Source: Nitrospirota bacterium (GTDB taxonomy: Bacteria; Nitrospirota; UBA9217). Taken from it: 15,695 nucleotides of DNA. The stretch lies in NCBI GenBank assembly GCA_963740085.1, contig CAVUCU010000006.1, positions 1 through 15,695 on the forward strand, written 5' to 3'. A program made the translations under genes and the position numbers. Below the pieces are notes generated by a model. It was not told where the DNA came from and did no database searches. It saw nothing but the letters and a program-made list of their open reading frames with translations. Shown here piece after piece: positions 1 to 15,695 of this stretch (position 1 is the first letter of the stretch; each line of letters begins with the position of its first letter).

Positions 1-75
1 GAGGAGTGGATGAAGTCGGCATCCAGCGGCCCGATGGGATAGTTTTTGGATGAGAAGTCGTAACTGCTCAGGCTT

Positions 76-166
76 GCCGCAAAAGAACACAAAGAACTCG
101 AAGAAAAAGCCAAAAATGATAATTTCGGTTTAAATTTATTCTGCGTTCCTTGCGTTCTTTCGCGGC
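76..166. repeat. Imperfect palindromic intergenic repeat (REP/MITE-like)
   Basis: GCCGCAAAAGAACACAAAGAAC (76-97) vs reverse complement of 145-166 (GCCGCGAAAGAACGCAAGGAAC): 19/22 match, AT-rich spacer, internal 9-nt periodicity. Confidence 0.7.
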
Positions 167-247
167 TATTAGATTTTGACCTGAGTAGATACGAGAAATC
201 AAGTTGAAACTCCGGGCCCGAGACTCTACTACATCAGGAGTGGACAC

Positions 248-3200
248 ATGGAACGAAAAAAGAAAAAAGCGCCTCCCAGTCGTTCTTCCCAAGGTCAGAA
301 AACCTCCAAAGGACCCAGGGTCGCGGTAAAGCCGTCCCTCCCTTCCCATGAAGAAATGCAACAGCTGAAGGCCGGTCCCTATGTTGTCGGCATCGGGGCG
401 TCCGCAGGCGGACTCGAGGCGCTGGAACTGTTCTTCAGCCACATGCCCCCGGACAGCGGCATGTCCTTTGTCCTGATCCCCCACCTTTCGCCGGACCGCA
501 AGAGCATCATGGCGGAACTTCTTCAACGGCATACCTCCATGAACGTCGCGCAGGCTGAAGAGGGGATGCGGGTCCTGCCGAACAGCGTGTACATCATCCC
601 CCCTAACCAGGACATGAACATCGAGGGCAATACGCTCAATTTGCTCGAACCCACAGCATACCACGGCATCCGCCATCCCATCGACTTCTTTTTCCGGTCC
701 CTCGCAAAGGACCAGGGAGAGCGTGCCATATGCATCATCTTCTCCGGGACGGGCACGGAGGGCACGCTTGGACTGCAGGCGATCAAGGGCGAAGGAGGGC
801 TTGTGCTGGCCCAGGAGGTCAAGACGGCAAAATATGACGGCATGCCGGCCTCCGCCATAGCCACGGACTCGTCGATTATATTCTCCCGCCGGAAAAAATG
901 CCCGAACTCCTGCTGCGCTACACGAAGAGCACCTTCACCCGCGCATTCAAGCCTCAGGTCAGGCCCGATGAAAAGCCGACCGAGGCCCTGCAGAAGATCT
1001 TCGCGATGATCAGGGTCCGGATGGGGCACGACTTTTCCCAGTACAAGCTGAACACGATCGTCCGCAGGATCGAGAAGCGCATGGTACTCCACCAGATAGA
1101 TACCTTGGACAACTATGTCTCATACCTTCGGAACAATGAATACGAGGTCGAAGCGCTCGCCAACGAACTGCTCATCCGGGTAACGAGCTTTTTCAGGGAC
1201 CCCGAGGCCTTCGACATCCTGAAACAGAAGGCCTTCCCCCGTATGTTCAAAGACAAGGTCTCCGGCAGCAACCTGCGCATCTGGGTCCCCGGATGTTCCA
1301 CCGGAGAAGAGGCCTATTCGCTTGCCATGGTCGCGCAGGAAACAATGCACGAGCACAACGTCAATTATAAGATCCAAGTCTTCGCCACCGACATCGACAG
1401 CAGGGCCATCGAGATCGCACGGGCTGGCCTGTACCCCGAGAGCATCACCGTCGACGTGTCTCCCGTGCGCCTGGCGCGTTTCTTCATCAGGAAGGGTCAG
1501 CAATATCAGATCAGGGATGATCTCAGGGAAATGGTGGTCTTCGCCGCACAGAACCTCATCAAAGACCCGCCGTTCTCGAAGATGGATATGATCAGCTGTA
1601 GGAACCTCCTTATCTATCTCGGGAGTGCGCTGCAGAAAAAGGTGCTGCCCCTGTTCCATTACTCACTGAATCCTGAAGGCATCCTGTTCCTTGGATCTTC
1701 GGAGACCGTGGGAGACTCTGTTGACTTCTTTTCCGTCCTCGATAAACGCTGGAAGGTCTTCTCGGCCAAGAAGATCGATGCCAACCGGGCCGCCGTGGTC
1801 GACCTCCGCTACCCCGTTTCCCCGGCAGGCCGGGCAAGAAAGGATGTCGTTCCTGAAGGCATGGGGCCGGTGAACGTCGCGGTCAGCAACGTCATGGAGA
1901 AGCTCCTGATCGAGCAGTACGCGCCTCCCAGCTGTATGGTGAACGATAAGGGCGATATCCTCTTTTTCCACGGCCGCACCGGCAGGTTCCTGGAGCCGGC
2001 CTCGGGCAAGGCCGCGCTCAACATCCTCGAGATGGCTCGCGAGGGCCTGCGTATCGAGCTCAGAACTGCGATCCGCAAGGCCCTGGACAAGAAAAAGGAC
2101 GTGGTCGTGGAAGGCCTGCAGATCAGATCGAACGGAGGCCACAGGAGCGTCAACCTGGAAGTTCGTTACGTAAAACAGCCGGAGCATCTGCAGGGACTGC
2201 TCCTCGTCGTATTTAACGAGCAGGCCGTCCCCCAAAGGCACAAGCAAGCGGTAAAGGCTACGACAAAGGCGGCGGGACACGCAAAGGTCAGAGCGGACGA
2301 ACGCGTCTCAGCAATGGAGTACGAGCTTAAGTCCACGAGAGAGCGTCTACAGACCACGGTTGAAGAACTGGAGACCTCGAACGAGGAGCTCAAATCGCTG
2401 AACGAAGAGCTGCAATCCTCGAACGAAGAGCTCCAGAGCACGAACGAGGAGCTGGAAACCTCGCGCGAGGAACTCCAGTCCGTGAACGAGGAACTGGTCA
2501 CGGTAAACACCGAACTTCAGAACAAGATCGAGGAGCTTTCCGATGCAAACAATGATATCGTCAACCTGCTCGAGAGTACCCTGATCGCAACGATATTCCT
2601 GGACAGCAAGCTGCGCATCAAGCGCTTTACCCCCACGCTCGCGGACCTCATAAACATCATCCAGACCGACGTCGGACGGCCCCTGGGCGACATCTCCGTG
2701 AAGCTGGACTATGCCGATCTCGTGGCGGACGCGGAGGAGACGGTCAGGACCCTCGAGACAAAGGAAAAAAGCGTCCGGCATGTGGACGGCCGCTGGTTCC
2801 TGGCGCGGGTCCTGCCCTACCGCACGGTTGAAAATGTCATCGACGGCATCGTCATCACCTTCATCGATATCACCGAGCAGAAGCGGGCCCAGGCGCTCCA
2901 GGATGCCCTCACCTATGCCGAGGGGATCGTGGACACCGTTCGCGAACCGCTCCTGGTCCTCGATGCGGACCTCCGGGTGATGTCCGCGAACAGGTCGTTC
3001 TACGAGATCTTCAGCGTATCTCGGGAAGAGACCGAGAAGAAGCTGGTGTACGAACTCGGCAGCGGGCAGTGGAACATCCCCGGGCTCAGGACCCTCCTGG
3101 AGGAGATCCTTACGAAAAGCGCGCAGTTCCGGGACTTCGTCGTGGACCATGAGTTTCCGGGCGTCGGCAGAAGGAAGATGCTGCTGAACGCCCGGCGGAT

Positions 3201-3267
3201 AAATCAGAACGAGGTCGGGACGCAAATGATACTCGTCGCGATGGAGGATGTGACGGGAAGAGGATAG
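248..3267 (+). CDS. CheB methylesterase-CheR methyltransferase-coiled coil-PAS fusion (CheBR type), split by a 1-nt frameshift near 865
   Basis: ORF 248-1009 has CheB motifs (VVGIGASAGG, PHL, PIDFFFRSLA, SGTGTEG). ORF 898-3267 has CheR motifs (VTSFFRD, RIWVPGCSTGEEAYS, FATDID, ISCRNLLIY), NEEL heptads and PAS domains. Adding one G to ACGGACTC (863-870) gives a continuous AIATGLVDYILPPEKMPELL. SD AGGAG at 236-240. Confidence 0.9.
2362..2496 (+). repeat. 21-nt coding heptad repeats (S/T-NEEL-x) in the CheBR coiled coil
   Basis: EELETSNEELKSLNEELQSSNEELQSTNEELETSREELQSVNEEL in the translation. Confidence 0.85.
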
Positions 3268-3279
3268 GGGACTAACACC

Positions 3280-4950
3280 ATGAAAAAAGCAAATTCAGAA
3301 ACTTCCGATCTCGCCGCTCTTCGCCGTAAAGCGCAGAAGAAGCTCAAAGAACAGACGGAGAGGCTGCAAGAGCTTTCCCAGCAGGATACGAAACGGCTCA
3401 TCACCGAACTGGGCACGCACCAGATCGAGCTGGAAATGCAGAACGAGGAGCTGCGCAGGGCCGAAAGGGAGCTCGGGGCCTCCCGCGACCGGTATGCCGA
3501 CCTGTATGATTTTGCGCCGGTCGGTTATTTTACGATTGATGAGCAGGGTATGATATGCGAAATAAATCAGAGCGGGGCCGACCTCCTTGAACTCGGCAAA
3601 CGCCTGTTGCTCAATAAATCGTTCACCTCCTTTCTCCTGGATATGTCCGATCAGCGGATATTTCGCGCCCACTGCGACGATGCGTTCCTCAAACAGACGC
3701 GGCAGTCCTGCGAGGTCAGGCTGAAAGGAAAAGACGGGCCTCCCTTGTATGTTCAGTTGCAAAGCATCGCGGCCGGCACGATCGAGGATAAAGCGGGTTC
3801 CCTGCGGATGACCGTTATCGATATCAACGAGCGCAAGCGGGCGGAGGAAGAACTGGGGAAGAGCAGGGAGCTCCTTCATTCGGTCATTGAAGGAACGTCG
3901 GATGCGATCTACGTGAAGGACCTGAAGGGACGATACCTTCTTTTCAATACAGCCTCTGAAGGCATAACAGGGAAGAACTCCGCCGAGGTGCTCGGCAAGG
4001 ACGACACCGTCCTCTTCCGGCCGGAAGAGGCAAAGATGGTCATGGCCGGCGACCGCGCGGTCATAAAAGCAGGCACGCGACAGACCTATGAAGAGGTCGT
4101 TACAACCGCATCGGGAGAAAAGCGGACCTATCTTTCCACAAAGGGTCCGTTGTTCGATAATGACGGCCGCCTCGCCGGCCTGTTCGGGATCGCGCGTGAT
4201 ATCACGGAACGCAAGAAAGCCCAGGAAGAGCTTCAGTCGACTCATGCTGAACTTGAGCGACAGGCATGCGAGCTCGAAGCGGTGAACCGGGAGCTGGAGG
4301 CCTTCTCTTACACGGTGTCGCACGACCTGAAAACGCCGCTTCGGAGCATCGGCGGTTTTGCCGGCGCGCTGCTCGAAGATTGCCCGGACAAACTCGACGC
4401 GACCTGCAGGGATTACCTTTCGCGGATAAACGCCGCTACGCTGCGGATGAACCAGCTCATCGATGCCATGCTGAAGATGGCGAAGTCAACACGCGGCGAG
4501 ATGCATGAAAATGTGGTCAATTTCAGCTCACTGGCAAAGGTCATAGCGCATGATCTAAAGAAACGGGATCCGGAACGACAGGTCGAATTCGTTATCGTTG
4601 ATAATATGAAGGTCAAGGGCGATGCGACAATGATGGAGGTAATGCTTCAAAACCTCATGGATAATGCATGGAAATTCACGAGTACGCATCAGACAGCCAG
4701 GATCGAGTTCGGGGTTGATGAGAGGGATGGCAAAACGGTATATTATGTTCGTGATGACGGCGCGGGCTTCAATATGCAATATGCCGACAAGCTCTTCATG
4801 CCTTTCCAGCGCCTGCATAAGGATTCCGAGTTTCCCGGCATCGGCATCGGTCTGGCCATCGCCCACCGCATTATCACGCGTCACGGCGGGCGGATTTGGG
4901 CCGAGGGAGAGATCGAAAAAGGCGCGACGATATTTTTCACCGTTGCGTGA
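3280..4950 (+). CDS. PAS/PAC sensor histidine kinase
   Basis: Two PAS/PAC regions, H-box FSYTVSHDLKTPL, N-box NLMDNAWKF, G1 DDGAGF, G2 GIGIGLAI. Starts 12 bp after the CheBR stop. Confidence 0.93.
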   Translation: MKKANSETSDLAALRRKAQKKLKEQTERLQELSQQDTKRLITELGTHQIELEMQNEELRRAERELGASRDRYADLYDFAPVGYFTIDEQGMICEINQSGADLLELGKRLLLNKSFTSFLLDMSDQRIFRAHCDDAFLKQTRQSCEVRLKGKDGPPLYVQLQSIAAGTIEDKAGSLRMTVIDINERKRAEEELGKSRELLHSVIEGTSDAIYVKDLKGRYLLFNTASEGITGKNSAEVLGKDDTVLFRPEEAKMVMAGDRAVIKAGTRQTYEEVVTTASGEKRTYLSTKGPLFDNDGRLAGLFGIARDITERKKAQEELQSTHAELERQACELEAVNRELEAFSYTVSHDLKTPLRSIGGFAGALLEDCPDKLDATCRDYLSRINAATLRMNQLIDAMLKMAKSTRGEMHENVVNFSSLAKVIAHDLKKRDPERQVEFVIVDNMKVKGDATMMEVMLQNLMDNAWKFTSTHQTARIEFGVDERDGKTVYYVRDDGAGFNMQYADKLFMPFQRLHKDSEFPGIGIGLAIAHRIITRHGGRIWAEGEIEKGATIFFTVA

Positions 4951-4955
4951 TAGGT

Positions 4956-5897
4956 ATGACGAAATCATTAGTTCACTCTGCCGCGAAGACACACATGAAC
5001 GAAGGCTGTGAATACCGCGAACAAGTCGGCCCTTCTGCTGATTCCCTGACGCTGCTGGCTTATCTGAGCGAGCGCTATCGTCACTCATCATCAGCGGAGT
5101 GGGCAACCCGCATCGCCTCCGGTCAGGTGCTTATCGATGATCTGCCTGCGCATGCCGACAGCGTGCTGGGCGCGGGATGCGTGCTGGCGTGGCGTCGCCC
5201 GCCGTGGATTGAGCCTGATGCTCCAAGGTCATTTCCCATTTTATATGAAGATGATGACGTGATCGCAGTGAACAAGCCGGCGGGATTGCCAACGCTTCCC
5301 GGTGCTAATTTTCTTCAGTCAACCCTGCTGCACCTCGTGCGGGTCCAAGCGCCTGACGCCGCTCCCCTCCATCGATTGGGTAGATGGACATCCGGTATAG
5401 TATTGTGCGCGCGGAACGACCATGCGCGGACGGAATTGATGCGGCAATGGTCGGCAAGGCAGGTCGGCAAACGCTACCGCGCGCTCGCGAGCGGGCGTCC
5501 TGATTGGGATGAGACGACGATCTCGACGCCTATCGGCCCGGTGCCGCACGCCTTGCTCGGCTCGGTGCATGCCGCGTCCCAAGAAGGCAAATCCGCTTTG
5601 TCTCACGTGACCGTCATCGAACGTCGCGAGGATTCCTTCCTCTGCGATGTACGTATTGAGACGGGCCGTCCACACCAGATCCGCATTCACCTGGCATACT
5701 CGGGACACCCTCTGGTTGGCGATCCTCTGTACGGCGCAGGCGGTTTGCCCCTGCCGGACACACACGCCTTGCCCGGCGACCCGGGCTACCATCTTCATGC
5801 CGCAATTCTGAGCTTTCGTCATCCCGGCACCGGGCGCGCGATGGTCATCGAGTGCGAGCCGCCGTCGTTATTACGAGTTCATTCAGGTTCGCAGTGA
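4956..5897 (+). CDS. RluA-family RNA pseudouridine synthase
   Basis: Motifs VNKPAGL, HRLGRWTSG, KRYRA, ETGRPHQIRIH, GHPLVGDPLY, LHA. Start is ATG 4956 or 4995; the ORF-track start at 4896 overlaps the kinase. Confidence 0.9.
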   Translation: MTKSLVHSAAKTHMNEGCEYREQVGPSADSLTLLAYLSERYRHSSSAEWATRIASGQVLIDDLPAHADSVLGAGCVLAWRRPPWIEPDAPRSFPILYEDDDVIAVNKPAGLPTLPGANFLQSTLLHLVRVQAPDAAPLHRLGRWTSGIVLCARNDHARTELMRQWSARQVGKRYRALASGRPDWDETTISTPIGPVPHALLGSVHAASQEGKSALSHVTVIERREDSFLCDVRIETGRPHQIRIHLAYSGHPLVGDPLYGAGGLPLPDTHALPGDPGYHLHAAILSFRHPGTGRAMVIECEPPSLLRVHSGSQ

Positions 5898-6054
5898 GAG
5901 CCGGGAGGTTGGAAACTGTTTTCGTGCAATTTGAAGAAGATGTTGGGCTTCATTATGCTCAGCCCAATCGACACGCTGCTCTTAGAATCGTAAATTGCTA
6001 CTTGAAATATTCATTTTATGCTATATTCGAATGGCAAGAAGTGCTTTCCGTACT
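5610..6054 (+). repeat. Direct repeat copy 1 (rluA 3' end plus downstream intergenic DNA)
   Basis: Manual alignment to 13851-14287 gives about 94% identity. Confidence 0.95.
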
Positions 6055-6169
6055 CCGCAACAGATACGTTTTATGAAAAATTCATATTTTACGCTGTCAT
6101 CAACCATCTTCATCTCTTCCGAATGGATTGACTTTTATTTAATATAATGTCAAAGAATCGTGTTTTCGC

Positions 6170-8575
6170 ATGACAAGAGAGGGCGCCATGGCGGTTGTTC
6201 TGTTGCTTGCGCTGGTCTGGTTATTGGCATATTTTCGGGTTAAGCTCCGGGTCTGGACCATTGTGGTTGCGGCGTTCCTGGGGTATTTGACCGTTGCAGG
6301 TCGGGGAACCACGGTTGCCTGGTTGATCTTTGTGCTGGCTGCGGCGATCTTGAATGTTGTGCCGCTTCGTCGTGTGCTCCTGAGCAGACCGCTGCTTGGC
6401 CTGTTCCGAAAATTGCTCCCCCCCATGTCCCAGACAGAACGGGAAGCGCTTGAAGCCGGCACCGTATGGTGGGACGGAGAACTTTTCAGCGGCCGGCCAA
6501 ACTGGCAAAAACTTCTGGCCGAACCCGGGCCTGCATTGACTCCGGAAGAGCAGAAATTCCTCGACGGACCGGTGGAAGAGCTTTGCCTGATGCTCGACGA
6601 CTGGAAGATCTGTAAAGAACTCCACGACCTGCCGCCGGAGGTCTGGAAATTCATCAAGGACAAAGGCTTTTTCGGCATGATCATCCCAAAGGAGTATGGC
6701 GGGCTGCAATTCTCGGCCATGGCCCATTCGCAGGTGATCATGAAGATATCCAGCCGCAGCATTACCGGCGCAGTGACCGTGATGGTTCCCAACTCCCTTG
6801 GCCCGGCCGAACTGCTGCTGCACTATGGCACAGAGAAACAAAAGGACCACTATCTGCCACGGCTTGCCCGGGGGGAGGAAGTTCCGTGCTTTGCACTGAC
6901 CGGGCCCGAAGCGGGAAGCGACGCCGCGTCCATTCCCGATATCGGCATCGTCTGCCGTGGGACGTTCGAGGGAAAAGAGAGGCTCGGCATCCGCCTCAAC
7001 TGGGAAAAACGTTACATCACCCTCGGGCCGGTTGCTACCATTATCGGGCTGGCCTTCAGGCTGAATGATCCCGACCATCTTCTTGGCGACAAGGAGGATA
7101 TCGGCATCACCTGCGCCCTGGTCCCCTCAAAACTTCCCGGCATCACCATCGGCACTCGTCACGATCCACTCGGCATTCCGTTTCAGAACGGTCCCACCTG
7201 GGGCAAGGACGTGTTCATCCCGATCGATTTTATAATCGGTGGCGATGCCATGGCCGGCCAGGGATGGCGAATGCTCATGGAGACCCTCGCTACCGGCCGT
7301 GGCATCTCTTTGCCCGCCCTCAGCACCGGCGCAGGTAAACTGACTTCCCGCGCCATCGGTGCTCATGCGCGGATCCGAAAGCAGTTTAAGCTCCCCATCG
7401 GCCGCTTTGAGGGGATCGAAGAGCCGCTGGCCAGGATCGGAGGCGCCACCTATTTGATGGATGCAGCGCGGGTCATGACCTGCGGCGCCATCGACCAGGG
7501 CAGGAAACCGGCGGTGATCACCGCCATCGTGAAATATCATCTGACCGAGCGGATGCGCAAGGTGGTGAATGACGGCATGGATGTGCAGGGCGGCGGCGGT
7601 ATCATTCTCGGCCCGCGCAACTTCCTCGGCCGGACCTATCAGTCGGCGCCGATCGGGATCACGGTAGAAGGGGCCAATATCCTGACCCGTTCCATGATCA
7701 TATTCGGTCAGGGTGCTATTCGCTGCCATCCGTATATTCAGCAGGAAATGCAGGCGGCGACTGATCCGGACCAACAGAAGGGGTTGGCGCTCTTCGACCG
7801 GGCGCTGTTCGGCCACATCGGCTACTTGATCAGCAACGCAGGCCGGACTCTTTTCCTGGGAATGACCGGCGGCCGGCTGGTCAGAGTCTCTGGCGGGCCG
7901 GCCCGCCGCTATTTCCAGAAGGCGACGCGTCTCTGCGCGGCTTTTGCCCTGACCGCCGATGCGGCGCTGATGCTTTTGGGGGGAAATTTGAAGCGCAAGG
8001 AAAAGCTCTCCGGCCGTTTGGCGGACATCCTGAGCATCTCTACCTGCTGTCGGCGGTGCTCAAACAGTATGAGGACCGGCGTCGGCCGCAGGACCAATGG
8101 CCGCTGTTCAAATGGGCCTGTGAGGAAAGTCTTTTCGGCATCTAGGAGAGTTTCGCCGGCCTCCTGCGCAACTTCCCGAATCGCCCTGCGGCCTGGCTTC
8201 TCAGGCTGCTCGTTTTCCCGCTCGGCCGCCCCTTTGCCGGACCGAGTGACCGCCTTGGTCGCCGGGTTGCGGGCATCCTGCTTGAACCGTGCTCAGCAAG
8301 AGACCGTTTGACCGCCGGGTTGTTTCTCCCCAAGAGTTTGACAGAGCCGCTCGGCCGGCTGGAAGACGCTTTGCCCAAGGTTATCGCCGCTGAGCCGGTG
8401 GAGAAAAAACTGCGGGATGCGATGCGGGTCGGCAAACTTAAGGAGCAGCCCGATGTCCTGCTCCTTGAAGAGGGGGCCAGGGCAGGGGTTGCGACAGTGG
8501 CCGAGGCGAGATCTTGCGTCTGGTTCTTCTTGCCCGCGCCTAGGTGGTCCGGGTGGTGATTTCTCCAAATTATAG
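6170..8575 (+). pseudogene. fadE: FadE-type acyl-CoA dehydrogenase with disrupted C-terminal region
   Basis: LPPMSQTEREALEAGTVWWDGELFSG, FALTGPEAGSDA, ITVEGANILTRS. Missing C at about 8035 (LADILS-HLYLLSAVLK), in-frame TAG 8143-8145, shift at about 8508, TAG 8541-8543. The C-terminal remnant ends near 8575. Confidence 0.85.
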
Positions 8576-8889
8576 AAAACAACGCCCATGCAGATTCTCA
8601 GCGCCTACGGCTTTTTCTTTCAGTGCAAAATGAGCCACTGGCGCATAATTACCGGGCCAAAAGGGTTCGATACCTGACCACCCTTCTCCCTTAATCCATA
8701 AAACCGGCTACTTCGAATACCTTTACGAATAACTCCCACGGTATGGTCTTGCTATATTTTGAGAAGCAAGACAACCAATGATTCCTTATCGTTAAACAAT
8801 GAGGCTCCTTACATGAATTAAATAGGCATTTGGTACTACAGATTGTCGGGCTTAAGGTAAAACTATTTTGTTATCAGGAGGGCCGCGCC

Positions 8890-9096
8890 ATGGAATGCAA
8901 TTTTCTATCGGGAAATTATATGAAATACTGCACCGAAAGCCGTGAAGGCTACATCCCAAGTGCATTCGAAATGCAGGAGTATTGCACATCAAGGAGGCAC
9001 ACCCTTTGCACATTCTTCTGCAGAAGGCAAGCGGAATTCCCGAGTTTCAGATCGAACAAAGCGCCGGCCTGCCGCTCGCCAAGTCGACGAACGTAA
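8890..9096 (+). CDS. Small Cys-rich hypothetical protein
   Basis: SD AGGAGG upstream of ATG 8890. Sequence MECNFL...YCTE...YIPSAFEMQEYC...HTLCTFFC. Confidence 0.6.
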   Translation: MECNFLSGNYMKYCTESREGYIPSAFEMQEYCTSRRHTLCTFFCRRQAEFPSFRSNKAPACRSPSRRT

Positions 9097-9154
9097 TGGG
9101 ATCGCCTTCGGGAAAAAATATGAGGCCGCTGCGCGAAACAATAGGAAATACATT

Positions 9155-9327
9155 GTGCAAAAAAATACGGATATCAACGGCATTACTATAGCGGCGGCAT
9201 TACTTGCTCTTTCATCATGCTTTCCGGTTGTTGTTCCAGAAGGCCTGGGCACGGGCACATGCCCGTTCCTGCGCCCGTGCCGGTGCCCGCTCCGGCGCCA
9301 CCGCATCCGAAACCCCAAGTTTATTAA
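9155..9327 (+). pseudogene. Small lipoprotein with Pro-rich tail, frameshifted
   Basis: Frames join into KKIRISTALL-IAAALLALSSC (lipobox)-FPVVVPEG-GHGHMPVPAPVPVPAPAPPHPKPQVY*, with TAA at 9325-9327. Confidence 0.45.
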
Positions 9328-9423
9328 ATGCGGAAAAACACGCGGGGCGGTTTCGAGTTATTGTTGAAGGAAAGCAAAAAGGCCTGATCACAAGCATAAC
9401 GTTCCTACGATGCGGGGGTTGTT

Positions 9424-9522
9424 ATGAAGGACGAAAGAAAAGTGTACGAAGAAAAGCTTGATGCGCAGTTGAAGGAATGGAGCGCACAGTTCGCCCTGCT
9501 CAAGGCCAAGCAAGGAAGATGA
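9424..9522 (+). pseudogene. Truncated coiled-coil stress-protein remnant (Sll1863-like)
   Basis: MKDERKVYEEKLDAQLKEWSAQFALLKAK resembles the N-terminus of this family as I recall it. Stops after 32 aa. Confidence 0.55.
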
Positions 9523-9595
9523 TATTAAAATAGAGTCTAAGAACGCGTCGTCGCCTTGACGGGAAAGTCTCGGAAAAATCCCATAAATCAATGGT

Positions 9596-9937
9596 CAGGA
9601 GACAGTGGCAGGTCTGCCCGGGGTGAAAAGCGTGGACAACAGGCTGGAAGTCAAAGGTGATCACCCCGCCGAGCAGTCGGATGCGTGGCTGATTGCGAAG
9701 GTGAAAACCACGCTCTTGTTCCATCGCAGCGTGAGCGGACTCAAAACCGAGTGAACGCTGAAAGACGGGATCGTCACCTTGCAAGGCGAAGCAACCAGCG
9801 AGGCGCGAAAGCAACTGACGACCAAATACGCCAAGGACGTGGAAGGGTCAAAGACGTTAAAAATCAGATGACCGTGTCCAAGACCCGAAAAAAATGGCGA
9901 GGACAACGGGTGATAAGATCGATGACGCCTCCATTAC
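9596..9937 (+). pseudogene. Multi-BON (OsmY-like) domain protein fragment
   Basis: Across shifts: QETVAGLPGVKSVDNRLEV...SDAWLIAKVKTTLLFHRSVS...KDGIVTLQGEA...YAKDVEG-VKDVKNQMTV...DKIDDASIT. No start, and truncated at the beginning of the next BON repeat. Confidence 0.85.
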
Positions 9938-9956
9938 AAAAAAGGAGGAAACACAA

Positions 9957-10243
9957 ATGAACGAAGACCTGGACAAATTGATTTCCCGTCGCACACTGCT
10001 TAAAGGCGCTGCTGCGGTAACATGCGTCGCACTCGCGTCCGCTTTCGGCGGCAAGGCATTTGCAGCAACAGTAAAATCGACCAAAGCCGTAGCGAAGTAC
10101 CAAGACACGCCGAATGGCGATAAGAAATGAGCAATTCAACTTCTATCGAAGGCAAGACGCCAATGGCTGACGGTACCTGTCAGCTCGTGGAGGGTTCGAT
10201 CAGCCCAGAGGGCGACTGTGCCTTGTATATCAAGAAAGCCTAA
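9957..10243 (+). pseudogene. Tat-exported high-potential iron-sulfur protein (HiPIP), frameshifted
   Basis: SD AGGAGG; Tat motif SRRTLLK and AFA cleavage site; YQDTPNGDKK; in other frames (C)SN(C)NF..EGKTPMADGTCQLVEGSISPEGDCALYIKKA*. This fits the HiPIP C-x2-C...C...C spacing. Confidence 0.8.
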
Positions 10244-10358
10244 TGCAGCGCCTCGGGGCCTCAGCCAGAATGGTTGATAGTTGAAAATTAAGTGACCTGC
10301 CCCTTGCAACGTGGTTATACTTGGGAACAGGGTTCCAAGTAAAAAAGGAGGAGTAATC

Positions 10359-10983
10359 ATGAAATACACATTTGCTCTATCTCTGTTTCTTGTCTCGCAG
10401 TTCTGATCGCTCTTGCACCCTCCGCCTCCCGGGCTGAGACGGCGTCGAAAAAAATTCCAACTACACGGTGATCAAGGGAGGGATCTATTCACCCAGCGAC
10501 TCGTACGATCTTGACAATTTCAACAATGGCAGCACAAGTCGTTTGGACACCAAGACCGGTTTCAATGGAGAGCTCGCGTTCGGTCATTACTTCTTACCCA
10601 TATTCGGCATTGAACTAGGAGCCGGATACTTTGAGAGCAAGGGTTCACCGGCGGCAGAGCCGGGAAGTACGAAACTGAAGGTCATCCCGGTGCTTGCGAG
10701 CGCCAAGGTCTTTCTCCCGCTCGGGCCGATCGAGCCCTACGGCGAGGTCGGGATCGGCGCTTACTTCACGAAACTTGAAGTAAGCGGCAATCTCGGAAGC
10801 TTCAGCGGTTCATCGAAAGTTACCTACGGAGTCCATGCAGGGGTCGGATTGAACATCAACTTTTCGGACACCTTTTTCCTCGGGGCTGAGGGAAGATACA
10901 TCCGGGCCAAGCCGGAATTCGGAGGTCAGCCCGTCAAGTTGAACGGATTTACCGCAACAATTGATCTCGGCTTCAGGTACTGA
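10359..10983 (+). CDS. Small outer-membrane beta-barrel protein (OmpA/OmpW-like), signal region frameshifted
   Basis: SD GGAGG and ATG 10359 start a signal peptide (MKYTFALSLFLV..AVLIALAPSASRA) broken by two shifts. ORF 10468-10983 has amphipathic strands, PYGEVGIG and a terminal aromatic residue (LGFRY). Confidence 0.8.
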
Positions 10984-11029
10984 TCATCCTCTGATAACTT
11001 TTTATGATAAAAAAAGGAGGTGAACCGAC

Positions 11030-11320
11030 ATGAAGATGAAATCTATTATTACCGTCCTGGTGACCGCGGCATTTCTCCTGAGTTTAGCAGGCCTCAGCCT
11101 CGCAGCCGGAGCTGATAAAATGGGAGTTAACGGTTCCGTTACCAGGATCGAAGGAAATAAGGTGACCATACAGGACGATATGGGCAAGGAGACGACCGTT
11201 GATGTACAAGACGTAAAAGACACCAAGGTCGGAGACAAGGTCAAGATCGAAGACGGCGTTATTAAGAATCCAACCGACGAACCTGGAGCGGCCGAGAAAT
11301 CTGGAAAACCGGGCTACTAA
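11030..11320 (+). CDS. Small secreted hypothetical protein (possible OB-fold-like)
   Basis: SD AGGAGG, Sec signal ending SLA, beta-rich GSVTRIEGNKVTIQD...KVGDKVKI. Confidence 0.8.
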   Translation: MKMKSIITVLVTAAFLLSLAGLSLAAGADKMGVNGSVTRIEGNKVTIQDDMGKETTVDVQDVKDTKVGDKVKIEDGVIKNPTDEPGAAEKSGKPGY

Positions 11321-11339
11321 AAAGGACTCTATTTAAGCA

Positions 11340-11374
11340 AAGGTGGAAAACGACTGTTTTCCACCTTGTTTTTT
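11340..11374 (+). terminator. Rho-independent terminator
   Basis: Perfect 12-bp stem AAGGTGGAAAAC-GACT-GTTTTCCACCTT followed by GTTTTTT, 20 nt after the stop at 11320. Confidence 0.85.
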
Positions 11375-11447
11375 GAAGAAGCCACCGCTTATTCATAATT
11401 GGCTGTTTTGGAATGAACAAATTCACTCATTCAAAAAGGAGCATACT

Positions 11448-11540
11448 ATGCTTTGGACGATCTTTGTAATTCTTATGATTATGTGGCTTCTGGGATTAGT
11501 AAGCGGATATACGATCGGTGGATACATTCATATTCTGTAA
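11448..11540 (+). pseudogene. lmo0937-family small membrane protein, C-terminally truncated
   Basis: SD AGGAG; MLWTIFVILMIMWLLGLVSGYTIGGYIHIL* lacks the usual second helix and basic tail. Confidence 0.75.
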
Positions 11541-11629
11541 TCCTGACAGCGAAATAATTTGCGATAATAAGAAGAATGTCCCGAATCTGGACAAGAAAAA
11601 CTCTTATGAAGAACCAAGGAGGGGATGAA

Positions 11630-11818
11630 ATGGCAAGATACGGTAAGAAGGCACAGGAAACGGTTGAGGAAGCAATGAAAAGGTTTAAGAAAGGTGAACT
11701 GAAAAGCGGCAAAAGTGGGGTAAAAGTAAAAAACAAAAAACAAGCGGTCGCTATCGGACTTTCGGAAGCGCGGGCAAAGGGAGCCAAGGTGCCGCCAGTT
11801 CCAAAAAAGTTAAAGTAG
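11630..11818 (+). CDS. Small basic protein, DUF6496-like
   Basis: SD AGGAGG; MARYGKKAQETVEEAMKRFKKGELKSGKSG.KVKNKKQAVAIGLSEARAKGAKVP. Confidence 0.8.
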   Translation: MARYGKKAQETVEEAMKRFKKGELKSGKSGVKVKNKKQAVAIGLSEARAKGAKVPPVPKKLK

Positions 11819-11985
11819 TTTATGGAAGATTCCCTCTTGCGACCGCGGCCGCCTCTAAAAATATCCGCTTTTCTGAAATCCTTATAACCAAGTGATATAA
11901 TAAATTGTGAGTAGCATGGCACTCTATGATTAAGATTGTAATATGTGTAATACTCCTTGGATTCGTCACTTTTTCGAGGTGACTT

Positions 11986-13031
11986 GTGAAACAGAAATTA
12001 CTATCCTTTTCCCTTACCGGCATGTTTCTCCTCGCCCTTTTCTATACTGCATATTTTGCCCGTGCCGTACTCCTTCCTATAATCCTGGCCCTTTTTTTTA
12101 CTTTTCTCCTGAGGCCGATCGTCAGGATGTTAAAGACGATTAAGGTTCCCGAGGCGGCAAGTTCAGCTCTGGTCCTGATCTCGTTTCTGGCGATCGTCGG
12201 GTTTGGTATGGCGAGGCTTGCTGATCCTGTCCAGGAATGGATCGAGAAGGCGCCTCAGACGTTCCATCAGGTAGTGCAAAAGTCCAAAAGGTTCATGAAG
12301 CCCATAAAAAAGGCAATGAAAACTGCCGACGAATTAAAAGAAACCGCAGGGGCCGGCGAGAAGAAAAAAACCGAAGCTGTACCTCCAGACCCAATTCCGA
12401 ACCTGACCTTGACATTTCTTTCAGAGGCCAAAGCTTTTTTGACCAAGACCGGTCTTGTTCTCATCCTTCTTTTTTTCTTCTTGCCTCCGGCGACCATTTT
12501 GTCGTAAAGCTGATGCATCTTTTTCGGCAGAATCAAAAAAAGGAAAAAGTGCAGGAGTTTGTGAATGAGATAGAGAAAACGATTTCGCGATACCTGTTGA
12601 CGGTGACCATGATCAACGCCGGTGAGGGTATCGTGCTCGTAGTGGGACTGCATCTCGTCGGGATGCCGGACCCCGTACTTTGGGGAATAATGGCCGCTTT
12701 GCTCATATATATCCCCTATCTCGGACCGCTGGTCGGCATTACGCTCGTTACCATCGTCGCCTTGGGGACTATAGATGACATGCAAAAAGCAGTTCTTGCT
12801 CCGATTATTTATCTTTCCATCGAGCTTCTTCAGTCCCAACTGGTAACTCCAATGGTCCTCGGCGCGCGGTTTTCAATGAACCCGGTCGTCATCTTTGTCT
12901 GGCTCATCTTCTGGGGATGGCTATGGGGAATCGTCGGCGCACTGATCGCCGTGCCGATGCTTACGATCTTTAAAATATTTTGTGATCATATCGAACCGCT
13001 TCAATCGCTCGGGGAATTTCTGTCGGATTAA
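11986..13031 (+). CDS. AI-2E family transporter, frameshift in a T run at 12470-12476
   Basis: One extra T gives LILLFFLLASGD and joins ORFs 11986-12507 and 12237-13031. Motifs YIPYLGP, LVTPMVLG, WGWLWGIVGALIAVP. Confidence 0.88.
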
Positions 13032-13117
13032 AGATTAAAATAAGTTTGCGCTGCCGAATCATTGGAACGTGGCTGGCCCCTCGGAGGCGTACGGGGTCAG
13101 ACTTAAAGATTGAGTTA

Positions 13118-13146
13118 TTGACGCCCGTCGGGATATTTTCTATCCT
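13118..13146 (+). promoter_or_regulatory. Sigma70-like promoter for the Y1 transposase, probably leaderless
   Basis: TTGACG-17 nt-TATCCT, with ATG 5 nt after the -10 and no SD. Confidence 0.55.
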
Positions 13147-13151
13147 CTGCC

Positions 13152-13822
13152 ATGGCTAGAAAACCCCGAATTGAATACGAAGGCGCCTTTTATCATGTAA
13201 TCACCAGAGGAAACCAGAAGCAGAAGATATTTAAAGATCCCCTCGATTATCGTAAATTTCTTGAAATACTTATCGGCTACAAACAACGCTATCATTTTCA
13301 TCTCTATGCATACATACTCATGTCCAACCATGTGCACCTTCTGATTGAAACCAGGGCCATTCCGCTCTCCAAAATCCTTCAGGGCGTTAACCAGAGGTAT
13401 ACCATGTACTATAACCGAAGGTACAAGACCGTGGGCACAAAAACGGAGCTGTCAGAATTGCTTGACACCGACCTTGTTCTCAGAATGTTTTCCGAGAACA
13501 AAGGCAGAGCACGAAAACAGTACTCGATGTTCATGAACGACGGAGCAACAATCAAGCAGGAAGACGTCTTGCCCCGGCTAGCAGGAGAGATTGCTCGGCA
13601 GTGCGCCGTTTCGCTTGAGGATCTGCGATCATGGAGAGAACCACAAATATCTTGACTGCTCGACCACTCTTCAGTATTCTAGCGAAGGAATATGGTTATA
13701 CAGGGCGAGAGATCGCGGCGTATTTGCGGAAAGACCCCGCGGCTGTGACTGTGTATCTCCGGAGTAGCAAGGATGTTTGGAAAGAAATAGAAGTTGTGGC
13801 CGCAGCTTTAAAGAAGGAATAA
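13152..13822 (+). pseudogene. Y1 HUH transposase with C-terminal HTH, catalytic region deleted and frameshifted
   Basis: MARKPRIEYEGAFYHVITRGN...YILMSNHVHLL (HUH). The usual HLFQGRY...YIH.NP segment is absent after YKTVG. HTH-like GYTGREIAAYLRKDPAAV lies in a second frame. Confidence 0.85.
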
Positions 13823-13850
13823 GTAACTCAATCTTTAAGTCTGACCCCAT

Positions 13851-14138
13851 ACCGTCATCGAACGCCGCGAAGATTCCTTCCTCTGTGATGTCCGAATTGA
13901 GACAGGCCGTCCACACCAGATCCGCATTCACCTGGCATCCTCGGGACACCCTCTGGTTGGCGATCCTCTGTACGGCGCAGGCGGTTTGCCCCTGCCGGAT
14001 ACACATGCCTTGCCCGGCGACCCGGGCTACCATCTTCATGCCGCAATTCTGAGCTTTCGTCATCCCGGCACCGGGCGCGCGATGGTCATCGAGTGCGAGC
14101 CGCCGTCGTTATTACGAGTTCATTCAGGTACGCGGTGA
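13851..14138 (+). pseudogene. 3' fragment of a second rluA-family gene
   Basis: TVIERREDSFL...HSGTR* aligns codon for codon with 5610-5897; no 5' part. Confidence 0.93.
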
Positions 14139-14287
14139 GAGCCGGGAGGTTGGAGGCTGCTTTCCGCAATTTGAAGAAGATGTTGGCTCACTATGCTCAG
14201 CCCAATCGATACGCTGCTCTTAGAATCGTAAATTGCTTCTTGAAATATTCATTCTATGCTATATTCGAACGGCAAGAAGTACTTCCT
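13851..14287 (+). repeat. Direct repeat copy 2, interrupted by the IS110 element
   Basis: About 94% identical to 5610-6049. Similarity appears to resume at 15694-15695 (GT), where the window ends. Confidence 0.92.
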
Positions 14288-14301
14288 CCTACGATTAGTT
14301 G

Positions 14302-14310
14302 TGCTATATA
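14302..14310 (+). promoter_or_regulatory. -10 half (TGc-TATATA) of a circle-junction promoter; -35 TTGACT at 15688-15693
   Basis: Joining right end, core and left end gives TTGACT-17 nt-TATATA. Confidence 0.65.
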
Positions 14311-14314
14311 GATG

Positions 14315-14462
14315 TCATAGAAGGGCAGGAGAACTTAGTTTACTTCCTGGGTCCTTGAACCCTCAGTACAGTTTGTTCCCTGCCTCCCATAGCCATGATA
14401 GGTTGATTGGGCCAAAGAGCCCTGGTAACGATGGAGGATTGGTCGGGAGGCGTTTCCTGCCT
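14315..14462 (+). ncRNA. Putative IS110 bridge RNA (ends approximate)
   Basis: Two stem-loops with large internal loops, each capped by a GGGY-6nt-RCCC hairpin. Loop segments match the target (TACTTCCT, AGTACAG) and donor (GGTTGATT, GGAG). Confidence 0.8.
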
Positions 14463-14490
14463 GTCTAAATCTTGCATGGAGGAGGGATCA

Positions 14491-15687
14491 ATGGAAAGTT
14501 TGACCGTTGGCGTCGATGTTTCCAAAGAGTCCTTTTCTGCCGCTGGCCTTGACGGCAAAGGGACACGCTGTTTCGCCCAAGATTGTACCATGGACAGTGA
14601 TGGGTTCTCGAAGTTGCTGAAGATGATAATGGCACAGCAACCATATGTTTCTACGGTCATCGTCGGCATGGAGTCCACGGGCTGCTATCACATCAATCTA
14701 TTCTCTTATCTCACGTCTCAGGGCATCCGAGCCGTAGTCATTAACCCGCTGTTGATTTCGAACTTTGCCAAACTTACGCTCCGGAAGACCAAGACCGATA
14801 AGAAAGACGCACTGACGATCGCCCAGTTCCTGCTGGCTCACACGGATAAGATTTCTCAGATGTCCGTCAGCCAGGATATGCAGGATATGCGAGATCTCGC
14901 CCGGGAGAGAGAGTCGCTGAGCCATTTGATTTCCGCGACCAAGACCGAGATCAAGCGGGTCTTGCAGACGACCTTTCCTGAGCTTGAGCGGCTCTGCGGC
15001 GTCTATTCGGGCATCATGCTTGAATTTCTGAAGAAGTTTCCCTCGGCTCGTTTGATTGTGCTTGCCAAACCCCGGGCAATAGCTAAAGCTATGGAGCCAC
15101 GAGGTTCAGGGAGCAGAATATCAACCTTTACGGCGGAGGATATCATCAAACTGGCCAAGAACTCGGTTGGGACGGTCAGTCCAGCCAAAGAGACTATCCT
15201 CCGGGGGAAAATCTCGACACTAATCCATCTGGAGGATCGTCGAGATGAGTTGACGGTCATGCTCACGGACTACTGCAACTCTCTGATGGTCGAAGACCTG
15301 GAGATTGTAACATCCGTGGTAGGCATCGGTAACGGAACCGGTACCACTTTTTTGGCTGAGCTAGGACGAATCGAGAGCTACGAGACGCACAAACATTTGA
15401 TTGCCTACGCAGGGATTGATCCAACAGTGTATCAATCCGGCAAGTACGAGGGAAAGAGCAGAATCTCAAAGAGAGGAAATAGGCACCTTCGACGTGTTCT
15501 TTGGCTCATGACGGTAAATGTGATCCTCAATAACGATAAATTCCGAGCGTATTACCAGAAAAAGAAACAAGCTGGATTGCCTTATAAGAAAGCAGTCATG
15601 GCAACAATGCATAAACTTACTCGAATGCTTTTTGCCATGTTGTCACACAAACAGAGATATCTGGCATCATCGGTGAGCTGCACATAG
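14491..15687 (+). CDS. IS110-family DEDD recombinase/transposase (398 aa)
   Basis: VGVDVSK (D), GMESTG (E), KTDKKDA (D,D), Tnp-domain YAGIDP.VYQSG, SKRGNRHLR. SD GGAGG before ATG 14491; intact ORF. Confidence 0.95.
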   Translation: MESLTVGVDVSKESFSAAGLDGKGTRCFAQDCTMDSDGFSKLLKMIMAQQPYVSTVIVGMESTGCYHINLFSYLTSQGIRAVVINPLLISNFAKLTLRKTKTDKKDALTIAQFLLAHTDKISQMSVSQDMQDMRDLARERESLSHLISATKTEIKRVLQTTFPELERLCGVYSGIMLEFLKKFPSARLIVLAKPRAIAKAMEPRGSGSRISTFTAEDIIKLAKNSVGTVSPAKETILRGKISTLIHLEDRRDELTVMLTDYCNSLMVEDLEIVTSVVGIGNGTGTTFLAELGRIESYETHKHLIAYAGIDPTVYQSGKYEGKSRISKRGNRHLRRVLWLMTVNVILNNDKFRAYYQKKKQAGLPYKKAVMATMHKLTRMLFAMLSHKQRYLASSVSCT

Positions 15688-15695
15688 TTGACTGT

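Follow-up and report, generated by a model that had tools for sequence, protein, structure and literature searches.

The stretch of DNA analyzed here (the window) is the entire 15,695-nucleotide contig CAVUCU010000006.1 (C6) of a Nitrospirota bacterium, and its right-hand end carries an insertion sequence (IS) of the IS110 family. The element lies on the forward strand at positions 14288-15693 and is 1406 bp long, counting only one copy (the right-hand one) of the CT core dinucleotide that flanks it. From left to right it contains a left end with a predicted two-module RNA, a recombinase gene, and a short right end (Table 1). Based on the evidence presented below, it is very probable that the element is an intact insertion sequence, probably active, that works like IS621 of Escherichia coli, the recombinase being directed to its target by an element-encoded bridge RNA. 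An original prediction, made from the letters of the window, had proposed an RNA-guided recombinase of this kind.

The gene encodes a protein with both domains of an IS110 recombinase, namely PF01548 (DEDD_Tnp_IS110; residues 6-163, E = 2.6e-37) and PF02371 (Transposase_20; residues 271-356, E = 9.5e-25), and it scores 236 bits, against a cut-off of 140, with the NCBIfam equivalog model NF033542, 'IS110 family RNA-guided transposase'. The only sequence matches among PDB entries are ISCro4 (E = 1.3e-16) and IS621 (E = 7.6e-14, phmmer). Residues D9, E61, D103 and D106, together with the S316-G317 pair of the Tnp loop, align with IS621 D11, E60, D102, D105 and S241-G242 (the numbering of the IS621 chain is offset by 2 in this alignment); the DEDD and serine residues are essential in IS621 (PMC11208158). 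The prediction of an RNA-guided recombinase is thus borne out as far as the IS110 DEDD/Tnp open reading frame is concerned, and guidance by RNA is the probable function suggested by the sequences described below.

Three copies of the element are found in the genome: the window copy, a copy in contig C5 with the same flanks, and an independent copy in contig C7 (C1, C5 and C7 are other contigs of the same genome). The C5 copy represents either the same locus as the window copy or an allele of it; counted in this way, the assembly contains two independent insertions, each with CT on both sides. The insertion in C5 reads AAGTACTTC-CT/element/TTGA-CT-GTACTCG, and that in C7 reads AAGTACTTC-CT/element/CT-GTAGTCT, within the wider context ...AAAAGTACTTC-CT/element/CT-GTAGTCTG. 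The window itself stops at ...TAG TTGA CT GT (15685-15695), and the next bases had been predicted to be ACT. Those bases are present in the C5 copy, which continues beyond the position of the window end as TTGA-CT-GTACTCGTTG.

Because the similarity between the C5 and C7 loci ends a few bases outside the element on both sides, its bounds can be fixed at 14288-15693, which is where the original prediction had put them. A 325-nucleotide contig from a metagenome run (X1) also bears on these boundaries: in it the flanks of the C5 locus meet, with 1407 bases skipped and 2 bases left between the left and right target. Like other IS110 elements, this one lacks terminal inverted repeats (10 of the 25 terminal bases match as an inverted repeat) and has the 2-bp core on both sides. 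The three copies are 100% identical except for one base, and no further IS110 paralogues were found in the genome by tblastn at E <= 1e-5.

The predicted left-end RNA and its candidate promoter

A stem, an internal loop and a capping hairpin had been described at the left end of the element, with guide words on the two sides of the loop, and all of these were confirmed in the sequence, in position and in fold. The stem, which has one bulged A, is formed by GGCAGGAGAAC (14324-14334) and GTTCCCTGCC (14375-14384), and the hairpin GGGT-CCTTGA-ACCC (14349-14362) lies inside the internal loop. The 71 nucleotides from 14320 to 14390 fold into this stem, internal loop and hairpin with an energy of -25.9 kcal/mol (z = -2.70); as stable a fold is reached by 5 of 200 shuffles. 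A second module follows, with GGTTGATT on the 5' side of its internal loop and CGATGGAG on the 3' side. The left end thus contains two stem/internal-loop/hairpin modules, as in a bridge RNA.

The same structure is found in relatives of the element. These comprise 80 loci with 47-83% amino acid identity, all from metagenome-assembled genomes (MAGs) labelled Nitrospirota, Thermodesulfovibrionales, Deltaproteobacteria/Syntrophales and similar. In the region upstream of their recombinase genes the shape is strongly conserved and both sides of the loops vary. The following counts refer to 66 distinct aligned left ends. By itself, RNAalifold gave 17 pairs without the stems of the donor loop, and a 26-pair two-module structure was therefore written by hand from the fold of the window and then counted. 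Standard pairs occupy 96.1% of its 1713 cells, changes on both sides are seen at 13 of the 26 pairs (103 cells), and none of 500 shuffles reaches the structure on any of five measures; when the pairing partners are slid by 1-3 columns, pairing falls to 24-63%. Helix 1 (11 pairs) is paired in 96.1% of its cells and helix 2 (4 pairs) in 100%, and 8 of the 10 pairs of helices 3, 4 and 6 show changes on both sides. G.U pairs are frequent (for example, in 16, 19 and 13 sequences at three of the pairs), which argues that the plus strand is the folded strand, as expected of RNA.

This last result bears on a quite different explanation. Before 2024, the specificity of IS110 elements was generally ascribed to the protein, and words that resemble the flanks are also present as DNA near the element end, where they could be sub-terminal repeats or recombinase-binding sites read by the protein without any RNA guide. 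Such direct reading of the DNA is very improbable, because the stems show compensatory changes and G.U pairs that would be mismatched on the other strand or in a DNA duplex. The guides themselves also speak against it: the right guide is a reverse complement and the left guide has the same sense, which is the two-strand RNA-pairing geometry established by experiment for IS621 (PMC11208160), and the variants of the left donor guide consist of transitions, by which wobble pairing with the bottom strand is preserved.

The consensus RNA of IS621 has a 5' stem-loop ahead of its target-binding loop, and the window element has none there, since the predicted start near 14317 is only about 6 nucleotides ahead of the first stem. 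The distance from the left end to the stem of the target-binding loop is 36 nucleotides here, a stretch taken up by the -10 box and the predicted start; it exceeds 50 nucleotides in 50 of 69 relatives, where a hairpin is visible, and is 37 nucleotides or less in 12, including the window element. Because the 5' stem-loop is a variable feature within the clade, its absence does not exclude membership.

A candidate promoter for the RNA is formed when the two ends of the element are joined. The joined ends read TTGACT-17-TGcTATATA, a near-consensus -35 box and an extended -10 box rebuilt across the core, as judged by sequence only. Among the relatives, the junction -35 box has the form TTGAC(T/A) in 61 of 65, the -10 box matches at four or more of six positions in 62 of 65, and the spacing is mostly 17-18 nucleotides. 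When the element is integrated, CTTCCT occupies the -35 position, and a promoter/terminator scan finds nothing. A promoter rebuilt in the circular form has been described for IS110 elements (PMC11208160), and the weak expression reported from integrated copies (PMC13626964) is consistent with a promoter that exists only at the junction.

Predicted target and donor guides

The left side of the target-binding loop contains TACTTCCT (14341-14348), which occurs again at 14280-14287, and the right side contains AGTACAG (14365-14371), the reverse complement of CTGTACT; the window shows only the CTGT of this last sequence (15692-15695). The left guide therefore has the same sense as left flank plus core (8 of 9 positions match) and the right guide is the reverse complement of core plus right flank (7 of 7), which is the geometry of IS621 (PMC11208160) that the original prediction had recognized. 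In 200,000 mononucleotide shuffles of the 203-nucleotide left end, the 8-mer was found 552 times and the 7-mer 2244 times; the two occurred together in 10.

The insertion sites in this genome and its community agree with the guides. In addition to the two insertions in the assembly, a second X1 contig joins the left end of the element to 24 bases that equal C5:197359-197382. The site at C5:197348 is empty in the assembly and reads GATTCCTTC-CT-GTACTTAAC (TTCCTTC-CT-GTACT), with one mismatch in the 12-bp motif. This junction is a third independent insertion, at a guide-like site; it is polymorphic in the community and therefore recent. All three independent insertions fit the guides with at most two non-core mismatches. 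Further copies at sites unrelated to the guides would have spoken against the original prediction, and the C7 and X1 insertions sit at guide-matching sites.

Covariation of guides and flanks, which had been suggested as a check, was measured in the relatives. Scanning covered 81 loci, made up of 79 relatives with a start codon and the element's own two copies outside the window (L041, whose start codon is not within the locus, was left out), and the target-loop module was detected in 77 of them. It was missing from L013, where the contig is truncated, and from L022, L032 and L035, where the region is rearranged or deleted. Decay is seen in several relatives, the RNA region being missing or rearranged in L015, L022, L032 and L035 and the recombinase open reading frame truncated in L007, L031 and L034. 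The left guide was defined as the nine bases 5' of the hairpin and the right guide as the seven bases ending three before the closing stem, and the ends of the elements were located by the conserved CCTAC (left) and AGTTGA (right). Guides were then shuffled among loci, with the core excluded and no rows dropped; mis-called or degenerate right ends (L007, L009 (register) and L082) were retained, which works against the result.

Left guides match their flanks at 4.98 of 7 non-core positions versus 3.38 (sd 0.15) in the null (61 unique pairs), and right guides at 3.68 of 5 versus 2.20 (sd 0.14; 53 unique pairs). Neither value is reached in any of 10,000 shuffles, figures that are counts and not probabilities because the shuffles ignore the relatedness of the sequences. 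The covariation is thus strong on both sides. Taken position by position, matches exceed the expectation from composition at left -5 to -1 and at right +1 to +5, but not at right +6 and +7. The family thus follows a 5+2+5 rule, under which the target of the window element is ACTTC-CT-GTACT; of the longer target TACTTC-CT-GTACT that had been proposed, only the T at -6 lacks support from the family.

Individual relatives illustrate the same point. The nearest, L006 (82% amino acid identity), has the left guide ..GCATCCT with the flank ..CCATCCT and the same right guide as the window element. Other groups switch guide and flank together (..CACCT/..CACCT with CTCCTTT/CTCCTTT), and the right guides CTACAAA, CTAATTA and CTTATTA occur with matching flanks in still other relatives. 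These results weigh on the idea that the structure serves only as a 5'-untranslated-region regulator of recombinase mRNA, acting on translation or stability, and that the matches to the flanks reflect coincidence or a site preference of the protein. The structure does lie directly upstream of the ribosome-binding site, and the CCUCCC strand of its second module is an anti-Shine-Dalgarno-like word. Nevertheless, a purely regulatory role is extremely improbable, given that both guide words arise by chance in only about 10 of 200,000 shuffles, that covariation of guide and flank as high as that observed arises in none of 10,000 on either side, and that guides and flanks change together between relatives as close as L006 and the window element.

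The natural sites of the relatives are imperfect, and in this they fit the mismatch tolerance and 'half-match' off-target insertion reported for IS621 (10.64898/2026.08.31.748434). Six insertions of one element in a single MAG (L045-L049 and L071) provide a natural view of mismatch tolerance. CTTC-CT is common to them on the left, with variation further out, and the right flanks CTGTAGT, CTGAAGT, CTGTTAT and CTTTAGT are found against the guide CTGTAGT.

The guides of the second module match the joined ends of the element. The right end consists of TAG-TTGA followed by the core, and the donor half-site thus includes the stop codon. The second loop reads (A/G)GTTGA-TT on its 5' side, and GGUUGAUU pairs with AGTTGA-CT, with wobbles. 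Changes in the right end are accompanied by compensating changes in the guide in several relatives: GATGA occurs with GGATGATT in L011 and L040, and GTTAA with GGTTAATT in L062. The right end TGGTTGA occurs with the guide TTGGTTGG in L053 and L066. For the right donor guide beyond core +2, no covariation with left-end positions 6-9 was seen by eye, a comparison that is unquantified.

Variation is also seen at the core. Relatives with a CA core (L008, L009 and L019) have GGTG in place of GGAG. Their right target and right donor guides both follow the CA core (..TG and GGTG); on the left, both the target guide and the donor guide retain U at the second core position, which argues that the two core strands are read unequally. 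A separate sub-group (L061, L064, L068, L070, L075 and L079) has left target guides that end in CA next to a CT flank core, and left donor guides that end in TC or TA, not TT; these are unexplained exceptions to the pairing rules.

The base after GGAG corresponds to the position called the 'handshake guide' in IS621 (PMC11208158). Where the flank is known, it complements the base just ahead of the target core in 61 of 68 loci (57 G/C, 3 T/A and 1 A/T), and seven further loci, which have no flank call and were judged from the guide only, have 6 G/C and 1 A/T. The G that follows GGAG in the window element is thus likely to be the handshake base for the C just before the target core. Likewise, U14372, which follows the right target guide and is at least 90% conserved, is a likely handshake base that would pair with the A ending the right end of the element.

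Several observations weigh against the interpretation of the left end as a bridge RNA that directs insertion. A search of Rfam 15 with window positions 13600-15695, on both strands, yields no family at E <= 1, and the whole 203-nucleotide left end folds no better than its shuffles (z = -0.24). The C7 site has one mismatch to the guide on the right side, and the left guide is mismatched with the flank at -7 in both genomic insertions. In the family as a whole, left -7 and -6 agree only at the level of composition (0.28 vs 0.27 and 0.57 vs 0.54), non-core mismatches number 1-8 of 12, most commonly 2-3 (61 loci with both flanks), and related sequences contribute to the covariation counts. Among the donor guides, that of L055 is not compensated for the right end GTAGA; among the handshake bases, six loci (the L061 group) have A opposite A and one other exception has G opposite A. 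Finally, the IS-less X1 contig has TT instead of CT between its flanks and 7 differences in 168 nucleotides on one side, and so does not preserve the exact pre-insertion site; it is a diverged allele or paralogue.

Table 1. The IS110-family element, its flanking target and its predicted functional parts, in window coordinates.
Feature	Position	Strand	Basis or detail
Left target ACTTC and left CT core copy (core at 14286-14287)	14281..14287	+	Identical flank at C7; -5 to -1 co-vary with guide
IS110-family element	14288..15693	+	Two flank pairs; IS-less contig; three near-identical copies
Extended -10 box TGcTATATA	14302..14310	+	17 nucleotides downstream of a -35 box formed only by right-left joining
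Predicted bridge RNA, two-loop	14317..14451	+	Start placed about 7 nucleotides past the -10 box, from promoter position
Target-binding loop module	14323..14385	+	Fold and alignment; stem 14323-14334/14375-14385, A14330 bulged; hairpin 14349-14352/14359-14362
Left target guide TTACTTCCT	14340..14348	+	Matches flank 8/9; family-supported part ACTTC + CT core, 14342-14348
Right target guide AGTACAG	14365..14371	+	C5 flank CTGTACT 7/7; C7 flank CTGTAGT 6/7
Donor-binding loop module	14386..14447	+	Stems 14386-14388/14445-14447 and 14392-14395/14440-14443; hairpin 14409-14412/14419-14422
Left donor guide GGTTGATT	14401..14408	+	Guide changes usually follow right-end variants
Right donor guide region CGATGGAG, then GA	14429..14438	+	GGAG complementary to core and first two left-end bases (CT-CC)
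Ribosome-binding site GGAGGAGGG	14478..14486	+	4 nucleotides upstream of ATG
Recombinase gene, 398 amino acids, RuvC-like DEDD and Tnp domains	14491..15687	+	Pfam, NCBIfam
Right end: stop TAG and TTGA (left donor half-site), right CT core copy	15685..15693	+	TAGTTGA-CT kept in most relatives
Junction -35 box TTGACT	15688-15693	+	Part of right end
First two bases (GT) of right target GTACT	15694..15695	+	Remainder past contig end; C5 copy reads GTACTCG

The proposed transposition cycle and known systems

The anatomy and boundaries of the element, its catalytic residues, the covariation of its RNA stems and of its guides with flanks and ends, and its independent insertions are all directly visible in the DNA. 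Combined with the homology to IS621, they suggest the following cycle, of which transcription, RNA-protein binding and chemistry are the inferred parts. Once excised as a circle, the element would have TTGA plus the CT core (right end) placed 17 nucleotides ahead of TGcTATATA (left end). These would form a sigma-70 promoter for a bridge RNA of about 135-155 nucleotides, encoded in the left end, and probably also for the recombinase mRNA that follows. The RNA would fold into its two stem/internal-loop/hairpin modules. The guides of the first module would together specify ACTTC-CT-GTACT, and those of the second (14386-14447), GGUUGAUU and GGAG, would pair with the joined ends AGTTGA-CT-CC. A tetramer of the 398-residue DEDD/Ser recombinase would then exchange strands at the CT core, as solved for IS621, leaving the element inserted between two CT copies.

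An element with a genuine bridge RNA could also have lost its mobility in this organism, so that the matches record past insertions only. Only three copies are present, of which two occupy one locus or alleles of it; a perfect 12-bp target (GGTACTTCCTGTACTC, at C1:954359) is unoccupied, and no right-left circle junction was found in the contigs of four DNA metagenome runs, where its absence is uninformative. Eighteen more genome sites have one mismatch to the target. The sole difference between the three copies, G14349C in C7, affects the first base pair of the target-loop hairpin, directly 3' of the left guide core, at a position that is G in 66 of 66 aligned left ends; the change either impairs the RNA of the C7 copy or stems from an error of sequencing. 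Nonetheless, loss of mobility is unlikely, since the copies are otherwise identical and have an intact open reading frame, and the X1 left end joined to a site that is empty in the assembly reveals a polymorphic, recent insertion.

The proposed cycle is modelled on IS621 (PMC11208160, PMC11208158, PDB 8WT6), and the likeness extends to many details. Both have the DEDD and Tnp domains, with all five catalytic residues aligned, and an RNA in the left end, upstream of the gene, with the target module first and the donor module second. In both, the left guides have top-strand sense and the right guides are reverse complements, each including the CT core (PMC11208160), a promoter sequence spanning the core is restored in the circular form, and pairing of the right donor guide is discontiguous. 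The bases after the right guides of the present element also fit the handshake idea (PMC11208158). The description of the element as 'IS621-type' is thus apt for the architecture, but the two are not close relatives: the sequences are distant (the RuvC part is barely aligned at E = 7.6e-14), and the protein has 398 amino acids versus 326 in IS621, the linker/coiled-coil between RuvC and Tnp domains being about 74 residues longer (about 150 versus 76). The RNA differs as well. The window element has no 5' stem-loop ahead of the target loop, its right target guide has 7 nucleotides including the core versus 4 in IS621 (longer right target guides have been noted in other orthologues; PMC11208160), 5 left positions co-vary versus 7, and the left donor guide places U opposite the core C. 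Only 4 nucleotides of the right end are non-coding, so that the stop codon falls inside the donor half-site. Unlike IS621, the present element is known from sequence alone.

The closest relative with a solved structure is ISCro4 (IS622) of Citrobacter rodentium (PDB 9T56; E = 1.3e-16), which aligns over both domains and has the same bridge-recombinase architecture. ISCro4 belongs to the IS621-like clade that was mined for 72 tested orthologues (10.1101/2025.05.14.653916), whereas the present element falls outside close range of this clade. The text of that preprint contains neither 'Nitrospir' nor 'Thermodesulfo', and no literature on bridge RNA or IS110 elements in Nitrospirota is among the matches listed, a comparison that covers articles outside the supplementary IS110 tables (Durrant 2024, Perry 2025).

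Other guide-RNA elements of the family are organized differently. In the IS1111 group (seekRNA type), the RNA has its place in the right end, downstream of the gene, whereas that of the present element lies upstream, and only 4 non-coding bases follow its stop codon. The two share the recombinase family and an element-encoded guide RNA with target and donor loops (PMC13604230). ISPpu10 of Pseudomonas putida is a bridge-RNA IS110 element whose targets lie in repeated intergenic sequence (10.64898/2026.03.19.712850). Similarly, one target of the present element lies in a 437-bp segment repeated at least four times and is partly palindromic (AGTAC..GTACT), but the C7 and C5:197348 sites are outside this repeat.

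Nothing here is categorically new. The NCBI family model already names such proteins RNA-guided transposases, and the element is a well-supported further natural example of the bridge recombinases that were reported in 2024. As far as host genome biology is concerned, it amounts to an ordinary insertion sequence that is probably active. It is conceivable, though doubtful, that the element and its roughly 80 Nitrospirota and deltaproteobacterial relatives form a distinct, compact clade of bridge recombinases with rules of its own. Recognition of the target may be symmetric (5+2+5 bp), the bridge RNA (about 135-155 nucleotides here) may be able to dispense with the 5' stem-loop, and the donor half-site may double as stop codon and -35 box. 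The left donor guide may read the core C by a U.G wobble, and natural sub-lineages may have switched their core to CA, a change matched in the right guides but not in the left ones. Should experiments confirm these rules, the clade would provide a smaller RNA scaffold along with a natural instance of core reprogramming.

Bridge recombinases are under development as programmable tools for DNA insertion, inversion and excision. A distant orthologue whose boundaries, natural target, donor, guide positions and family alignment are defined by sequence is a ready candidate for screening, and its clade supplies natural data on guide length and core tolerance. Screens to date have centred on the IS621-like clade, and in human cells activity was seen for few orthologues, 18 of the 72 by polymerase chain reaction and one by a reporter (10.1101/2025.05.14.653916).

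Genomic surroundings of the element

The window and C5 are closely related well beyond the element. The window is 99.4% identical to C5:67823-73485 over 5677 bp, and positions 1-15695 as a whole are a near-duplicate of C5:67823-81658, in blocks of 96.7-99.4% identity with rearrangements. Because the window stops 2 bases past the element, the break in the contig is ascribed to the repeated element.

The left flank (13851-14284) is the 437-bp segment mentioned above, which includes the 3' end of an RluA-type pseudouridine synthase gene. The segment is repeated at window positions 5610-6046 and twice in C5 (at least four copies in all); at about 6030-6050 of the window, the uninterrupted paralogous repeat reads GAAGTGCTTTCCGTACTCCG. 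One copy in C5 (75920-76165, read on the minus strand) ends exactly at GAAGTACTTC, the left target, beyond which come about 250 bases of homopolymer runs (A8, T56, A12 and finally a long run of G). The stretch has the look of filler or an assembly artefact, in the position that another copy of the element or target would occupy.

Two further genes lie upstream. An open reading frame for an IS200-like Y1 transposase (13152-13655, plus strand; PF01797, E = 6.8e-13) is located about 630 bp upstream of the IS110 element, so that mobile elements and repeats cluster at this end of the contig. Preceding it is an AI-2E family transporter (11986-13031, plus strand) that is split into two overlapping open reading frames, 11986-12507 (profile positions 6-158) and 12237-13031 (profile positions 154-326). 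The split is a frameshift, due either to a pseudogene or to an assembly indel.

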